DNA of 32,000 nucleotides from Promethearchaeum syntrophicum. Its GTDB lineage: Archaea; Asgardarchaeota; Lokiarchaeia; Sigyniarchaeales; Promethearchaeaceae. The position numbers and the translations under genes are program-made. This document shows, in pieces, positions 21,192 to 27,827 of this stretch (position 1 is the stretch's first letter; every line of letters begins with the position of its first letter). Where the stretch lies: positions 270,001 through 302,000 of the forward strand of contig NZ_CP042905.2 in NCBI RefSeq assembly GCF_008000775.2. The letters are read 5' to 3'. The notes beneath the pieces are model-generated. The model ran no database searches. It saw only the letters and a list, made by a program, of their open reading frames with translations, and was not told where the DNA came from.

Positions 21192-22244
21192 CTATTCTTC
21201 ATCATTTGAAGAATCATCAATTGGAGAGTCATTATTTGAAGTATCGTTAATCCCAAGTTGGTTGATCATTTGCTTCTTTAATGTTGAAAGATCTCTTGAA
21301 AGTCCAAAAGTATCTGAAAAATTCTCAGTTGTCATCAATTCATAAGATCTTCCCTTTTTCATTGCACTAATAAACCCTCTATCCAATAAAAACTTAACAT
21401 GTTCATATGCTCCCGATCCCCGAATTTTTATTAATTTGGATTTTAGAATCGGTTGTTTTAAAGCAATAATTGTTAGAGTTTTCAAATGCCTGTCTGGTAT
21501 AAGCCCTCCAGTAGCAAATTTTTTAACATTAGGGGTATATTCTGGTTTAATTTGAAGGCTGAATTTATCTTGAATCTGGACAATCTCTAATGCAGTTGCA
21601 CGCATCAAATAATCCAACATTAACTCTTCTAAATTCTTTTCTAAATCTTTTTTCTTAATTTCTGTTTTTATATTAAGTTCTTCTATCGAGATAGGACGAC
21701 CCGCTACAAAAAGAGCACCCTCAATAATATTCTTCATTCGAGAGTTTTCATCAATTTCTTCTGAAACTAACTCTTCCGTTGATAATTCATCACTAACTGC
21801 GGGGGTTTCTAGTGCTTCTGGATTATCTTCATCTATAAATTCTTCGATAGATTCATGAGTTATCTCCTCTCCAGGAATATTATTATCTAATTCTTCATAA
21901 TTTTCTGGAGCTTCTTCTCGTTCTTCTTCCTTCTCTCCCTCTTCTTCTATTAATTCCTTTTCAGCAGGTAAACTCTCAATTTCTTTATCAATTTCTTCTA
22001 AATCAGCTAAAATTTCTTGTTCAATTACATCTTGATCTTTTTCAATATTTTCTTCTTTTGGTTCCGGTTCTTCAATCCTATCTATTTGATGTTCTTCAAT
22101 TGGGGCTTCATCTTCTTCTTCTGCTTCTTCATCTTGATCTAAATCGTCTGGTTCTTGCTGATCACTATTTTCTTCTTCAATTTCATCTAATTCTGGGATT
22201 TCATCATTAATTTCTTTGTTTAAATCATGTTCTTCTTCAAGCAT
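21192..22244 (-). CDS. scpB: ScpB (condensin accessory subunit) with a ~168-aa polyacidic N-terminal extension
   Basis: The ScpB core is IEGALFVAGRPISIEEL...LKTLTIIALKQPILKSKLIKIRG...LLDRGFI...GRSYELMTTENFSDTFGL. AAGGTGA lies 6 nt upstream of the ATG at 22244. The extension is about 50% D/E. Confidence 0.85.
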   Translation of the reverse strand: MLEEEHDLNKEINDEIPELDEIEEENSDQQEPDDLDQDEEAEEEDEAPIEEHQIDRIEEPEPKEENIEKDQDVIEQEILADLEEIDKEIESLPAEKELIEEEGEKEEEREEAPENYEELDNNIPGEEITHESIEEFIDEDNPEALETPAVSDELSTEELVSEEIDENSRMKNIIEGALFVAGRPISIEELNIKTEIKKKDLEKNLEELMLDYLMRATALEIVQIQDKFSLQIKPEYTPNVKKFATGGLIPDRHLKTLTIIALKQPILKSKLIKIRGSGAYEHVKFLLDRGFISAMKKGRSYELMTTENFSDTFGLSRDLSTLKKQMINQLGINDTSNNDSPIDDSSNDEE

Positions 22245-22269: not shown

Positions 22270-23328
22270 TTAACTTAAATTGATGCTAGTTTTATCGACA
22301 AGAGTTACCTCAATTGGGCTCCGCATCGTTCTTTGAGCCATTGTTACTTTATTTAAAGATGCTAAAAATAACAACTCTTCAAAAAGTTGAATGTAATTTA
22401 CCTTTTTCTTCAGTATTGCTTGATCTTCTTGATAAATCATTTTTTTTAGTAATGCAACGGAAAAAGTTTGGCCATCTTTATTCATGCGAATGATTTCCTT
22501 TATTTTTTGATGCGTTTTTTGAAGTCGTTCTTCAATAGTTAATTCGCTCCCAGTAATATGCTTCAAAATTTCAGCAGGTAGTTTTCCTTTTCCCCGTATC
22601 TTAATTTGTTTTTCTCGTTTAGCAAGACTGCGTTCACGCCTAATTCTTAATTTTTCGCGTTTTTGCATAGTTTCAATAATTGCTCTCCTCATTGCACCAA
22701 ACAATTCACTCGAGGTTGCAATTTTTCGACTTTCTCGTAAAGGCTGTGCTATGGCTCTAGGAATTTCTCTTCGTAAACGCGCGCGTGCCTCTTCTCTTTG
22801 AATATGTTCCTCTTCTGCTATCACACTTGTGATTTTCTTATGATAAAATTTCGCAGATGAATAGATCGCTAGCCCAGATATACGAAAATCGATTAATTCT
22901 TCAGTTAACATCTTGTCAATAAATTCTTCTATTAATTTGCTTATATCGAATTTCGCCAGATCTACATTACTCGCCAGATCAGGATCCAATAAAGATCGCC
23001 ATGGTTCCTCAATCCACCATTTTCCTGATTTTTCAAGCACTTCATTTTCATTAATCTCTGAATTATCCTCAATTTCTGCCCCGACTGTAATGACTTCCTT
23101 AATAACAGGTTCTACTTCTTCTTTTTTGACTTTTTTCTTTGATTTTTTCTTATCTACTTTTGGAGATTCTTTCTTTTGATCTGATTTTGGCTTCTCAATT
23201 TTACCAGTTAAACTTGTTTGCTTTAATTTTGTTGTCTTTGCTTTTCTAGTCTTTTTTTTACTAGATTTCTTTGAGGTTGTAGGTTTTTTAGTTGTTTTTT
23301 TTTTCTTTTTTGTTGTTTTCTTTGCCAT
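22270..23328 (-). CDS. scpA: ScpA (kleisin) with a polybasic lysine-rich N-terminal extension
   Basis: The archaeal ScpA-like N-terminal block is LDPDLASNVDLAKFDISKLIEEFIDKM...ISGLAIYSSAKFYHKK. The C-terminal winged-helix-like block is FEELLFLASLNKVTMAQ. The gene sits between smc and scpB, with AGGAGAGG upstream of the ATG. The first ~75 aa are K/T/S-rich (MAKKTTKKKKKTTKKPTTSKKSSKKK...). Confidence 0.75.
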   Translation of the reverse strand: MAKKTTKKKKKTTKKPTTSKKSSKKKTRKAKTTKLKQTSLTGKIEKPKSDQKKESPKVDKKKSKKKVKKEEVEPVIKEVITVGAEIEDNSEINENEVLEKSGKWWIEEPWRSLLDPDLASNVDLAKFDISKLIEEFIDKMLTEELIDFRISGLAIYSSAKFYHKKITSVIAEEEHIQREEARARLRREIPRAIAQPLRESRKIATSSELFGAMRRAIIETMQKREKLRIRRERSLAKREKQIKIRGKGKLPAEILKHITGSELTIEERLQKTHQKIKEIIRMNKDGQTFSVALLKKMIYQEDQAILKKKVNYIQLFEELLFLASLNKVTMAQRTMRSPIEVTLVDKTSINLS

Positions 23329-23345: not shown

Positions 23346-26300
23346 CTATTCATCAAGTACATCAGTGACTATTGGGGAATCTAAATCTGCATCATCAATT
23401 CCCTCTATTTTAGATCCAAAATCATCGCGATCCTTTTCTTCCTCCAGATCCACATTAAAAATATCGGTAATTCCATCATTCATCGCAACTCCATATATTA
23501 TTTCGGAATTTGTAATATTCTCCTCTCGGTGTGAAATCACCAAAAATTGACTCTGAGACGCATATTCCTTAATAACCATCGACACACGATACACATTTGG
23601 GCCGTCTAAAGCCGCATCTATTTCATCCATGATGTAAAAAGGCGCTGGGTAGAAATTCTGGACTGCGAAAATAAAACTTAAGGCCACCAGTGTTTTTTCA
23701 CCACCTGATAAGATAGTCAAAGATGAAATTTTCTTTCCTCTCGGACGCGCTTCGATGGTAATCCCCCCTTCAAATGGATGAGCCGGATTTTCTAAAATCA
23801 TTTTCGCCGATCCTCCTGGACTAAGCTTTTGGAACACAGCACTAAAAACTCGATTAATCTCATGATAAGCTTTCATGAAGTTTCGCGTTTTTTCCAATTC
23901 AATCCTTTCTATACTATCCAATATTGCTTTTCTTTCACGTTGTAACGTTTGTCTACGCATATCTATTTCATCCCATCTTTCTCTAACTTGTTCGAACTCC
24001 TCGATAGATTTCAGGTTGACTGGTTCTAATGCTGTGCGTTCAGTCGTTACTTTGTTGATTGAATTAGTGAGTTGGGTTTCATCTAAATCATCAGAAACAG
24101 GAGGCAATGTTCCGAATTCTTTTGATTTTTCAAAATATTCATCGATTTTTTCCTCAACATAGATTTTTTCATTTTCTAAATTATTAAATTTCGTGGTATT
24201 CATCGATAAATCTGTGTTAAGTTCCCCTAGTTCATCCCTTAGACTTTTTTGTTTTTCCCAAGACTCGTTAATTTGTGTATTTAATTCTGTTATTGCGTTT
24301 GATTTTTCGGTTCTTTCTTCTTCAAATTTTCCAATTTCTTCAGTTATATATTTAATGCTATCTTCAAAATCAATAATACCATCCTGCAAATCAATGACTT
24401 CACTTTTCATATTCTCAATTTCAATAGCACGATCCTTCATTTGTTGTTGCTTATCACGTTTTTTGTCCAATGCATTCTTTTCATTGGTGAGATCTGAAAG
24501 TGTTCCCCTTTGTTCATTCTCTTTTTGTTCGAGATCTTTGCGTTCTGATTGAATTCCTTCAATTTCAGTATTCTTTACATTGATTTGCTCATCAAATTTC
24601 TCGATATCCGCCTCGAAAGTGGTGATTTTTTCTTTATCTTCATTAATTGTCTCAGTAAATTCTTCATTTTCTAATTTTAGGTTTTCAATATCAGAAATGA
24701 GCTTTTGCACATTTTCTAAATCTTTGAGTTTTGAAATGCTCTCGTTAAATTTCTCATTTTCCCCTTCAATTTGCGCTTCAAGATCGGTTCTAATATCCTC
24801 TGCCGATTCCCTATCCTGTTTTATTTTGCTTATTTTCTCATTTACAGATTTTGTTTCTTCTTGAGCTTTTGTATTACTTTGATTCAGTTCTTCAATAGAT
24901 TTCTTCTTATTCTTAATATTTTCGCGCAATTTTTCTTGATCTTTTGTTGCACTCTCAATATCCTCAAGAAATCGTTTAACTGTGCCTAATGAATTCAGGT
25001 CAGAAATAATACCATTTAATTCCTCTGATTTCGAGTCAATAAGTGATTGTAAATCTTTACTAGATTTCCAAAAATCATCGGAAAATTGTTTAATCTCTGT
25101 AAATTTTGTATTGATATCCTCAATTTCTTTTTTCAGAGTTTCAATTTTGGTGGCTTTTTCCTCTATTTCTATATTACCGTTCTTAATTTTTTCTGTATTG
25201 TCTTCAAAATTTTGAGTTAAATCTTTAAGATCTCTTTTTAAAGTGGCATTTCGATCTTCCTTTTGCTCTAAATTGCTCTCAATCTTTGTTAGTTTATTTG
25301 AAATCTCTAATAATTGGTTTTGTTCTCTTTGAATGCTTTCATTTAACGAATCTAATAACCGATATTGCTCTGATGTATCGGAAACTCCTAACGCCTGAAT
25401 TGCAATTCTAATAGAAGCAAAAACCTCTGTAAAATCTAATACAAAATTATCAAAATTTGATGTAGACTCCACCAATGCTTCTTCACTTGCATCGCGTACG
25501 ACCTCATTTAATTGCTGGATGGGTTGATCCGAATTTTCAATTAAGAAATTTAGTGTAGTGACCACTTGCTCCAATTCAATTTTTATTTCTTCGGCTTCCT
25601 TTGTAGATATTTCTTCAATAGTCCCTAACATGTCGGTAATATCCATCACGAATGATCTTAAAACCGATTCTGATTCGTCAATAGCCACCTGAGTGGCATT
25701 TTGAATATCACTTTTGATATTCCCCGCAGATCGGTCAATATTCTGGATTAATTCATGAACCGTTGTCATTACACTTTCTAACTCATGTGACGATTCCGCC
25801 TGTTCATCCGCCTTTTTATCAATTTTTTCTTGGAGATCTTCCCTATCTGTATTTAATTTCTCCAATTTTTTATTTATATTTTTAGCTTGCTCACTCAGTT
25901 TTTCTTTTTCTATCGTTAAAACATTAATTTCATCCGTTAAATTTGTGTTATGAAGGGTTTTTTCATTTTTCTCGCGCTCGCTTTTCTTTACTTCGCCTTG
26001 AGCATTTTTCAAATCATATTTTACATTTGAGATCCGCTTTTCTAAATCCGCCACTTCATTTTCTAATGATCGTCGTTTTATTTCAAAAGTTTCCTTCTTA
26101 TTTTGCGAATTTTTTTGCTCATCATTTGCCTTCTTCAATTTATTCTTGGCTTCCGCTAATTCGTTATTGAGCAGCGCCTCTTTACTTTTTAAGCCTTTGA
26201 CTTGATCTTCAACCGGGTTCCCTTTTGTGAGTCTATCATATTCTTTTTGAAATCCTTCTTTCTTCTCTTCCAGATCGTTTATTTGTCCATCAAACAGATT

Positions 26301-27827
26301 GATTTCTGCACTCGCTGAAGATACTGAAGCCTGAATATCAGCTTGTCTTTGCATTGCTTTATCTCTGTCAACTTCTGCTTTTTTAATTTCCTCATCCAAT
26401 TCTTTTTGCTGATTTTTTTGCTCTTCAATCTTATTCTTCAAGTCATTTATTGCCCCGCTGATTTCATCCTTCTCTGCTTGGGCTGCCTTAATAGCCTCGT
26501 CAATTGACTCATCTTCTTTCTTAAGTTTTGCCAACTCTTTTTCCAATTTCGTCAATTTTTTGGTATTTTTCGTAATATTTTTGTTGGACAGATTGATTTC
26601 AGTTGATAATCCTTTTATATCTTGCTTTACTTTCGAAATTTCTTTATTTATTCCGGTTTTCTGCTCATTGATCTCGGCTATTTGGATTTCTCGCTTTTTC
26701 TGCTCTTGAATTGTTTCATTAATGATTTCAGAAGTTTCATCCATCCGCTGCTCCACAACATCTATCTCCCCTGAAGACAATGCTATTAAATCATCGAATG
26801 TTTGCCCCTCTTCCAATTTCTCTTGGAGATTTTGCAATTTTTCAATATTGGCTTCCAGTCGCTTTAAATTCTCCTTTGTTGCTTCCAAGGTCGCCTCTTT
26901 TGCCGACAAATCGGATCTTTGCTGGCTGATATCCTCCTCAATTTTGGCCTTTTCCCCTTCTACCCCGGCTAAATCTTCTTTAATATTATTTAACAGTAAA
27001 TTTTCGGTTTCAATCTTCTCTTTCTGCCGATCTATTCGCGATTTCAACTCGTCCATCACTAATTGGGTTGATTCGATATCAGCTCCGATTTCTTCCTCTC
27101 GCTGGCGTAGATGAAAGATTTTCAGCGCAATCAGCTGCGCATTATATTGTTTGATTAAATTATCCAACTGTTTCCATTGGAGTGCATCATTTTTCTCCTT
27201 TTCGACCTTCTTTAACTGCTGTGACACTTCTTTGAAAATTGCCTCGAATTGCCCCAAATCTGTATCTGCTTTCTCCAGCTCTTTGAGGGTCCGCGCCTTC
27301 ATCTGATCATACTTTTCTAGTCCAATAAGGGTTTCAATGAAAATCCGCCGATTCACCGTATTCATATGAGTCAGTTCGACAATTTTTCCTTGGAGAATAA
27401 ATTGATTTGAGCCATCTGGATCAATATTTGCCTGCGCCAGTGCATTTAGCAGGATTTCGCGGGTAGTTTTTTTTCCTTGAATCTTATATCCTGATTGTCC
27501 CTTCGCTTTGACCCACCGTGTTATGTCATATTCATCGCTGTCTTCTGGAAACTCTCGATTCCTATTGTCGAACGTTAATGTTACCTCTGCTCTGGTTGCT
27601 GCTTTAGCTGTTTTTGAACCCGCAAATATGAGATCTGTTAAGGCGCGCGCGCGCATTGTTTTTTTCGACATACGCCCCAGTGCAAAACAGAGAGCGTCTA
27701 TGATGTTGCTTTTACCGTTTCCGTTTGGACCGATGATACATGTAAATCCTTTAGCAAGTGAGACAGAGACAGTGCGATTTCCGAAGCTTTTAAAACCAGT
27801 CATGGTAACGCGTTTAATGAAAGTCAT
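23346..27827 (-). CDS. smc: SMC chromosome-condensation ATPase, unusually long (1493 aa)
   Basis: The N-terminal head is MTGFKSFGNRTV...IIGPNGNGKSNIIDALCFALG (Walker A) with Q-loop QGK. The C-terminal head is LSGGEKTLVALSFIFAV (signature) and FYIMDEIDAALD (Walker B/D-loop). Between them lie about 1050 aa of coiled-coil-type sequence. The gene is followed directly by scpA and scpB. Confidence 0.92.
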   Translation of the reverse strand: MTFIKRVTMTGFKSFGNRTVSVSLAKGFTCIIGPNGNGKSNIIDALCFALGRMSKKTMRARALTDLIFAGSKTAKAATRAEVTLTFDNRNREFPEDSDEYDITRWVKAKGQSGYKIQGKKTTREILLNALAQANIDPDGSNQFILQGKIVELTHMNTVNRRIFIETLIGLEKYDQMKARTLKELEKADTDLGQFEAIFKEVSQQLKKVEKEKNDALQWKQLDNLIKQYNAQLIALKIFHLRQREEEIGADIESTQLVMDELKSRIDRQKEKIETENLLLNNIKEDLAGVEGEKAKIEEDISQQRSDLSAKEATLEATKENLKRLEANIEKLQNLQEKLEEGQTFDDLIALSSGEIDVVEQRMDETSEIINETIQEQKKREIQIAEINEQKTGINKEISKVKQDIKGLSTEINLSNKNITKNTKKLTKLEKELAKLKKEDESIDEAIKAAQAEKDEISGAINDLKNKIEEQKNQQKELDEEIKKAEVDRDKAMQRQADIQASVSSASAEINLFDGQINDLEEKKEGFQKEYDRLTKGNPVEDQVKGLKSKEALLNNELAEAKNKLKKANDEQKNSQNKKETFEIKRRSLENEVADLEKRISNVKYDLKNAQGEVKKSEREKNEKTLHNTNLTDEINVLTIEKEKLSEQAKNINKKLEKLNTDREDLQEKIDKKADEQAESSHELESVMTTVHELIQNIDRSAGNIKSDIQNATQVAIDESESVLRSFVMDITDMLGTIEEISTKEAEEIKIELEQVVTTLNFLIENSDQPIQQLNEVVRDASEEALVESTSNFDNFVLDFTEVFASIRIAIQALGVSDTSEQYRLLDSLNESIQREQNQLLEISNKLTKIESNLEQKEDRNATLKRDLKDLTQNFEDNTEKIKNGNIEIEEKATKIETLKKEIEDINTKFTEIKQFSDDFWKSSKDLQSLIDSKSEELNGIISDLNSLGTVKRFLEDIESATKDQEKLRENIKNKKKSIEELNQSNTKAQEETKSVNEKISKIKQDRESAEDIRTDLEAQIEGENEKFNESISKLKDLENVQKLISDIENLKLENEEFTETINEDKEKITTFEADIEKFDEQINVKNTEIEGIQSERKDLEQKENEQRGTLSDLTNEKNALDKKRDKQQQMKDRAIEIENMKSEVIDLQDGIIDFEDSIKYITEEIGKFEEERTEKSNAITELNTQINESWEKQKSLRDELGELNTDLSMNTTKFNNLENEKIYVEEKIDEYFEKSKEFGTLPPVSDDLDETQLTNSINKVTTERTALEPVNLKSIEEFEQVRERWDEIDMRRQTLQRERKAILDSIERIELEKTRNFMKAYHEINRVFSAVFQKLSPGGSAKMILENPAHPFEGGITIEARPRGKKISSLTILSGGEKTLVALSFIFAVQNFYPAPFYIMDEIDAALDGPNVYRVSMVIKEYASQSQFLVISHREENITNSEIIYGVAMNDGITDIFNVDLEEEKDRDDFGSKIEGIDDADLDSPIVTDVLDE

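Follow-up and report, generated by a model that had tools for sequence, protein, structure and literature searches.

Smc gene and ATPase heads

This study concerns an smc gene on the reverse strand of a 32,000-nucleotide stretch of the Promethearchaeum syntrophicum genome (contig NZ_CP042905.2, positions 270,001 to 302,000; hereafter the window), followed by genes for an ScpA-like kleisin and the kite subunit ScpB. The 1493-residue product, which we call SMC_A, carries the split ATPase head of SMC proteins at its two ends, but where a globular hinge is expected at the middle of the chain we find a predicted acidic helical hairpin on unusually long coiled-coil arms. The features of the locus are collected in Table 1. 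The genome is a single contig of 4.32 Mb with 31% GC and encodes three SMC proteins, SMC_A, SMC_B and SMC_C.

Table 1. Features of SMC_A and its two downstream genes, in window positions; residues are those of the respective protein.
Feature	Position	Strand	Description
smc gene (SMC_A)	23346..27827	(-)	1493 aa, intact; Pfam SMC_N
ATPase head, N-terminal half (Walker A, R-loop, Q-loop)	27279..27827	(-)	residues 1-183; aligns to PDB 1xew_X 1-182; motif residues invariant
N-terminal coiled-coil arm	25800..27278	(-)	residues 184-676; heptad-periodic; AlphaFold2 helix
Three tandem ~98-residue N-arm modules	26106..26987	(-)	residues 281-378, 379-476, 477-574; hhalign E 1e-8 to 1.6e-10, in register over 95-96 columns
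Tip repeat R1, outgoing apex helix	25605..25799	(-)	residues 677-741
Apex turn	25593..25604	(-)	residues 742-745; DSSP break in AlphaFold2 model; variable, indel-bearing loop
Tip repeat R2, returning apex helices	25383..25592	(-)	residues 746-815
C-terminal coiled-coil arm	23901..25382	(-)	residues 816-1309; heptad-periodic; AlphaFold2 helix
Tandem ~90-residue C-arm modules	24261..25070	(-)	residues 920-1009, 1010-1099 (hhalign E 4.8e-13); 1100-1189 borderline, 8e-7
ATPase head, C-terminal half (signature motif, Walker B, D-loop, H-loop)	23439..23900	(-)	residues 1310-1463; aligns to PDB 3kta_B 2-155; motifs invariant
Acidic C-terminal tail of SMC_A	23349..23438	(-)	residues 1464-1493; 40% D/E
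ScpA-like kleisin	22270..23328	(-)	352 aa; match to PDB ScpA 6ivh over residues 120-224; polybasic N-terminal tail
ScpB kite subunit	21192..22244	(-)	350 aa; PF04079 9.2e-35, TIGR00281 4.9e-32; acidic N-terminal extension

SMC_A has both halves of a split N/C ABC ATPase, complete from Walker A to the H-loop, with GFKSF at residues 11-15, GPNGNGKSN at 33-41, LSGGEKT at 1373-1379 and MDEIDAALD at 1400-1408. An earlier note on this DNA, made from the letters alone, had called these head motifs textbook; all of them are present, and in an alignment of 10 family members the catalytic and motif residues are invariant. Against Smc heads of known structure (5xei, 5xns, 4i99) the SMC_A heads score E 1e-92 to 7e-116, and the match to Pyrococcus Smc 5xei reaches 392 bits, versus 384 bits for SMC_B. 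Pfam recognises only SMC_N (PF02463, 1.7e-39) and generic P-loop families. The archaeal Smc equivalog model of NCBIfam (TIGR02169) gives 596.7 bits, distributed over 5 separate stretches and below its cut-off of 729.4; the Rad50 models (68-104 bits, cut-offs 700-1087) and the model for the archaea-specific SMC-related protein, ASRP (NF045487, 157.7 bits, cut-off 300), fall short as well. Proteins of this type are named 'chromosome partition protein Smc' despite failing the equivalog cut-off, which calls for caution in reading such annotations. An assembly or frameshift artefact is excluded because a like architecture, in open frames of ~1480-1515 aa, recurs in >100 genomes.

Absence of a recognisable hinge

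The hinge is regarded as universal among SMC proteins and as one of their defining parts; its assigned roles are dimerisation, DNA binding and, in some models, the entry of DNA. In SMC_A and 8 of its relatives, Pfam SMC_hinge (PF06470) gives no match even at E 0.1-10. A phmmer search of the PDB with SMC_A returns no hinge entry, the same database searched with residues 480-1090 alone returns nothing relevant, and an hmmsearch of PDB sequences with a profile of 30 orthologous central regions (residues 665-835) reaches E 0.1 at best, with designed helical bundles. When the SMC_A central alignments were compared by hhalign with alignments of SMC_B-type and SMC_C-type hinges, the probability was 0.2-4%.

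The sensitivity of these searches can be judged within the same genome. SMC_B (1197 aa; G000:C1:3323466-3327059 (-), L011:7467-11060) has a canonical PF06470 hinge at 101.7 bits and serves as a built-in positive control for hinge detection; such a co-resident control is new here. By phmmer, SMC_B matches the hinge structures 4rsj (2.8e-28), 3nwc, 5h69, 1gxl, 4rsi and others. SMC_C (1183 aa) is SMC5/6-like with a weak hinge of 24 bits, and hhalign nevertheless aligns the SMC_B hinge to it with 88% probability (E 3e-6, 132 columns). A globular hinge of the PF06470 type was thus not found in SMC_A by Pfam, by PDB sequence search or by hhalign.

Structure prediction agrees with the sequence searches. 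An AlphaFold2 model of residues 560-940, built from 29 sequences, has a mean predicted local distance difference test (pLDDT) score of 83 and consists of helices only (561-741, 746-764, 767-815 and 819-939), with pLDDT >90 in the flanking arm helices and 56-78 in the centre. Foldseek of this model against the PDB retrieved only antiparallel coiled coils (the MukB elbow, chemoreceptor hairpins, Rad50, and Smc and Smc5/6 arms) at weak scores; there was no hinge and no match below E 1e-3, and template modelling (TM) scores were ~0.2-0.3. Homology of the tip to a solved structure was rejected on these scores and on that of the PDB profile search. A zinc hook at the apex was likewise excluded: SMC_A has no CxxC and only two cysteines, at residues 30 and 47, which leaves none in the rod, and its relatives have no conserved cysteine there.

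These results bear out the central claim of the earlier note, that the protein has no recognisable canonical hinge. The central segment that it had described as all-helical, with only three glycines and no CxxC (hence no Rad50 zinc hook), corresponds to residues 677-817 (nucleotides 25377-25799); it contains exactly three glycines (702, 735, 814), and the model has no strand. Two findings had been named there as speaking against a missing hinge. Recovery of a hinge fold by profile or structure search did not occur with hhalign, phmmer, AlphaFold2 or Foldseek. As to a simple coiled-coil insertion beside a standard hinge, coiled-coil duplications do exist in the arms, but no standard hinge adjoins them.

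A duplicated acidic hairpin at the tip

The segment that occupies the place of the hinge has an internal symmetry of its own. Repeat R1 (residues 677-738) and repeat R2 (746-807) align by hhalign without gaps at 34% identity (97.4% probability, E 1.3e-11), and the two strands of the hairpin tip are therefore a tandem duplication. The apex turn between them is a variable loop, its four residues being the least conserved columns of the alignment, with gaps. The change from arm to tip is also seen in the periodicity of the helices. Heptad (period-3.5) power is 15.7 in the N-terminal arm (residues 561-670) and 22.1 in the C-terminal arm (830-939), and falls to 0.3 in R1 and 0.2 in R2; period-3.67 power is 0.8 and 1.3 in the arms and 7.6 and 9.2 in the two repeats. 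Large hydrophobic residues make up 24-25% of the arms and 36-38% of the tip (36% in R1, 38% in R2), and column conservation rises from 0.53-0.57 in the arms to 0.70-0.71 in the tip (0.71 in R1), which makes the tip the best-conserved part of the rod.

The tip is at the same time strongly acidic. Its net charge is -13 to -21 per 139 aa across the order and -21 over 139 aa in this SMC_A, where lysine and arginine together amount to only 5%, whereas the canonical hinge of SMC_B is net basic (+6.5 per 100 aa).

The tip domain also occurs in a second protein family. A 921-aa orphan protein of the same genome (G000:C1:978980-981745 (-), L075:4981-7746) contains it twice (E 4e-12 and 9e-6), followed by a beta-rich C-terminal part and a lysine-rich tail. 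This protein has no Pfam match; AlphaFold2, applied to its N-terminal half as a possible natural 'single-chain dimer' of tip domains, gave an all-helical model with pLDDT 84, and in our genome survey (below) the family was found only in 9 genomes of the window's own family, f1. The R1/R2 pseudo-symmetry, the periodicity change and the recurrence of the tip domain in another protein family are among the new points of this analysis.

Equal arms built from tandem modules

SMC_A has the antiparallel coiled-coil arms of an SMC protein, as seen from the AlphaFold2 helices, the heptad periodicity and the SMC and MukB arms among the Foldseek matches. By alignment to PDB structures, the N-terminal half of the head ends at residue 183 and the C-terminal half starts at 1310; the midpoint of these boundaries, ~746, coincides with the turn predicted at 742-745, so that the two arms are of equal length, ~494 and ~495 residues separating the tip from the heads. 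This midpoint argument is new here. The estimate of ~500 versus ~400 aa in the earlier note did not survive this comparison; there the C-terminal head had been taken to start too early. Including the tip, each strand has ~560 residues, compared with ~330 in Pyrococcus or Bacillus Smc, so that the arms are ~1.7 times the usual length. As a coiled coil rises by ~0.15 nm per residue, the rod would measure ~80 nm (canonical Smc, ~50 nm). SMC_A and SMC_B are 31% identical over A7-481/B1-426 and A1090-1461/B762-1175, and between these aligned blocks SMC_A has 610 residues in place of 336 in SMC_B.

Profile autocorrelation has maxima at shifts of 90, 180 and 270 for the C-terminal arm and of 195 for the N-terminal arm. 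Since the same hhalign test on the canonical arms of SMC_B reaches a background of E 1e-5 at best, we counted modules as shown only for pairs at E 1e-8 or better, which gives the repeats of Table 1 save the borderline third module of the C-terminal arm. Judged by these profile alignments, the extra length of SMC_A comes from tandem coiled-coil modules of ~90-98 residues. If the chain is mirrored at the apex, the modules of the two arms come to lie opposite each other, as expected if both strands of a rod segment had been duplicated together.

The members that branch first within the SMC_A clade (P0037; G280 and G281, of family f4) are shorter, with 1296-1349 aa and the tip domain at ~572-733. 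Lengthening of the arms may therefore have followed replacement of the hinge.

Kleisin and ScpB partners

The adjacent genes point to a putative kleisin and kite partner for SMC_A. The earlier note had described the row as an smc-scpA-scpB operon, of which the scpB part is supported by both PF04079 and TIGR00281. The scpA part is supported by the PDB match (6ivh, E 5e-5), which covers the N-terminal domain of the solved ScpA, but not by Pfam, whose ScpA model has no match in the 352-aa kleisin, nor anywhere in the genome. The order smc-kleisin-scpB is kept in 7/7 genomes sampled across the order. Charged appendages recur in the complex: the kleisin begins with a polybasic tail of ~75 residues and ScpB with a polyacidic extension of ~170 residues, and both the tail and the tip of SMC_A are acidic.

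Other SMC loci of the genome

A second, short ScpB (190 aa, L011:3186-3758) lies ~4 kb from SMC_B. No kleisin was recognised near SMC_B, and its 285-aa neighbour has no similarity to the kleisin beside SMC_A. The region G000:C1:4292228-4302266 (L012:1229-11267) holds SMC_C and, three genes upstream of it, a 1176-aa protein with HEAT repeats. The latter exceeds the cut-off of Pfam for condensin Cnd1 (39.5 bits), has a weak match to the stromalin SCD domain and is a candidate for a hawk-like protein in the vicinity of an archaeal SMC.

Distribution and origin

We searched 400 genomes of the phylum in six frames with SMC_A residues 640-860. The tip domain was found in 131 of the 153 other genomes of the order, namely in 13/13 genomes of f1, 1/1 of family f2, 115/135 of f3, the largest family, and 2/4 of f4; outside the order it was found in 6 of the 246 genomes sampled. 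The open frames that contain the matches are nearly all of 1480-1515 aa. When 1.84 billion cluster representatives were searched with a profile, the domain was found in 42 proteins only, in Asgard-type clusters, either with the architecture of SMC_A or in proteins of ~920-1180 aa with two or three tip copies near the N terminus. The relatives carry the names Promethearchaeota or Lokiarchaeia, and Ca. Lokiarchaeum ossiferum is among them.

The canonical hinge has a narrower distribution. In genomes with a completeness of 90% or more, only some genera have a strong SMC_B-type hinge, and in most high-quality genomes of family f3 the only PF06470 match is the weak SMC5/6-like hinge, so that SMC_A is the sole condensin-type SMC there. 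The canonical-hinge SMC is lost in most genomes of the order, a point that is new here. In two genomes of one genus we noted open frames of 238-247 aa with an SMC hinge match of 90-100 bits (L056, G162:C96:12793-13134; L057, G161:C72:87110-87448), which represent either hinge proteins in their own right or pieces of a disrupted canonical smc gene.

In a maximum-likelihood tree of the head and proximal-arm regions, SMC_A proteins form a clade (support 100/100) whose stem is long, at 1.0 substitutions per site. The clade stands in a polytomy with the Asgard canonical Smc clade, Thermococci/Methanomicrobia and DPANN; monophyly of SMC_A with Asgard canonical Smc is not rejected by the approximately unbiased test (p-AU 0.56). 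SMC_A is not nested in Lokiarchaeial canonical Smc, and the tree gives no support to a recent duplication from it. Lying outside that group, SMC_A is therefore an old or fast-evolving paralogue.

Possible modes of action

We consider it reasonably probable that SMC_A functions as a condensin-type SMC ATPase together with its own kleisin and ScpB, its hinge having been replaced by a helical hairpin whose tips bundle and so dimerise the protein. The globular alpha/beta hinge would have given way to the helical hairpin tip in the common ancestor of the Lokiarchaeial order. The chain is predicted to run out as one strand of the coiled coil, turn at residues 742-745 and run back, and two such tips would pack into a long four-helix bundle that takes over the dimerising role of the hinge. 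All SMC complexes function with two SMC subunits that dimerise at the end far from the heads. We infer a four-helix bundle because the conserved hydrophobic positions of the tip are more numerous than a two-helix hairpin would need, because its periodicity is 11/3, which is typical of straight helical bundles, and because its confidence in the monomer model is lower. At the other end, ScpA would bridge the heads and ScpB sit on ScpA, closing a tripartite ring of much larger perimeter. With so acidic a tip, SMC_A has probably lost the DNA binding of the canonical hinge or moved it elsewhere.

Several points weigh against this account. The tip models cover monomers only, and dimerisation of the tips is argued from composition and conservation. 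The low pLDDT of the tip could equally come from flexibility or from the shallow alignment of 29 sequences, and two helices with a hendecad repeat might form a hairpin that is stable by itself. In this genome a canonical-hinge SMC and a second ScpB are present as well; SMC_A need not be the main chromosome organiser here.

One alternative hypothesis, which strikes us as rather doubtful, is that the tip is a docking site and not a homodimeriser, either for a basic partner, for example a chromatin protein or the kleisin with its polybasic tail, or in a hetero-bundle with the 921-aa protein, which would act as a 'hinge in trans' joining two tips. The strong acidity of the tip and its paucity of lysine and arginine are in keeping with such a site, as are the ~75 basic residues available on the kleisin and, on the 921-aa protein, the two tip copies and lysine-rich tail. 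However, our survey found the 921-aa family only in 9 genomes of f1, and a tip that occurs throughout the order cannot generally depend on such a partner.

A further-reaching version of tip bundling, which we hold to be unlikely, is that the R1-R2 tip is a new lineage-specific helical association module that has fully replaced the hinge and that, in most genomes of the order, belongs to the sole condensin-type SMC. In f1 the module would also have been copied, twice over, into the 921-aa protein, which could then bridge or cap SMC tips as a trans hinge. If true, chromosomes in these archaea would be organised by a hinge-less ring with a much larger lumen and without the DNA-binding site of the hinge.

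We think it improbable that SMC_A acts in the manner of Rad50 or RecN, with heads dimerised by ATP and kleisin and with tips that stay free or make transient contacts between complexes, tethering distant DNA. Hairpin-tipped SMC-like proteins do exist (Rad50/SbcC, RecN), Rad50 coiled coils are among the best Foldseek matches and the arms of SMC_A are very long; yet its rod has neither CxxC nor cysteine, its partners are ScpA and ScpB with no Mre11/SbcD-type nuclease, and the tip surpasses the rest of the rod in conservation and hydrophobicity, which speaks for an interface that stays buried permanently. Finally, that a canonical hinge is still there, diverged beyond sequence recognition, is very hard to believe: SMC hinges can diverge strongly, as that of SMC_C illustrates, but the modelled region has no strand, few glycines and an internal duplication of two helices, the family profile finds nothing in the PDB, and hhalign falls far below the value that it gives the divergent control.

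A whole Asgard order thus keeps the SMC heads, kleisin and kite with the hinge swapped for an acidic helical hairpin and the arms made ~70% longer. SMC_A thereby offers a natural experiment on which functions of the hinge SMC action can spare and on how arm length is tuned, and it poses the problem of how a hinge-less SMC ring works. The lineage belongs to the archaea closest to eukaryotes, and the order includes the cultured Ca. Lokiarchaeum ossiferum; tests are possible in culture or with recombinant protein.

Comparison with known systems

Asgard archaea have been reported to carry two, sometimes three, SMC-kleisin-kite sets, and a Prometheoarchaeum SMC-kleisin-kite gene row is listed as condensin/cohesin-related (Yoshinaga & Inagaki 2021, PMC8665677; bioRxiv 10.1101/2024.01.07.573240), which fits the three SMC proteins of this genome. 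The texts of these two studies make no mention of hinge loss or replacement or of longer arms, and we found no published description of the hinge-less Lokiarchaeial SMC_A family. 'Hinge-less' SMC-like proteins with SMC-type heads, a coiled coil, no hinge and no CxxC have been described from marine Actinobacteria (PMC12153180); they are bacterial, known from metagenomes only and without described partner genes, and they are unrelated to the SMC_A tip domain.

SMC_A resembles Rad50/SbcC in a coiled coil that folds back at a small apex without a globular hinge, with weak Foldseek matches to Rad50 arms; it differs in the missing zinc hook, the SMC-type heads and the kleisin and kite partners in place of a nuclease. 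In chemoreceptors (MCPs), two helical hairpins form a four-helix bundle. The chemoreceptor signalling domain (2ch7) shares with SMC_A a long helical hairpin that is most conserved at its tip, and Foldseek matches it with probability 0.99-1.0 (TM 0.23-0.29); with E 0.67-0.77 there is no sequence homology to the SMC_A tip, and the likeness is one of architecture only. The closest comparison is with canonical Smc-ScpAB of Pyrococcus, Thermococcus and B. subtilis (TIGR02169/TIGR02168; 5xei, 4i99, hinge 4rsj), with which SMC_A shares its heads, its arms and the downstream kleisin and kite genes, and from which it departs in having no PF06470 hinge, an acidic helical hairpin as its tip, arms ~1.7 times as long with tandem modules and a TIGR02169 score below the cut-off.

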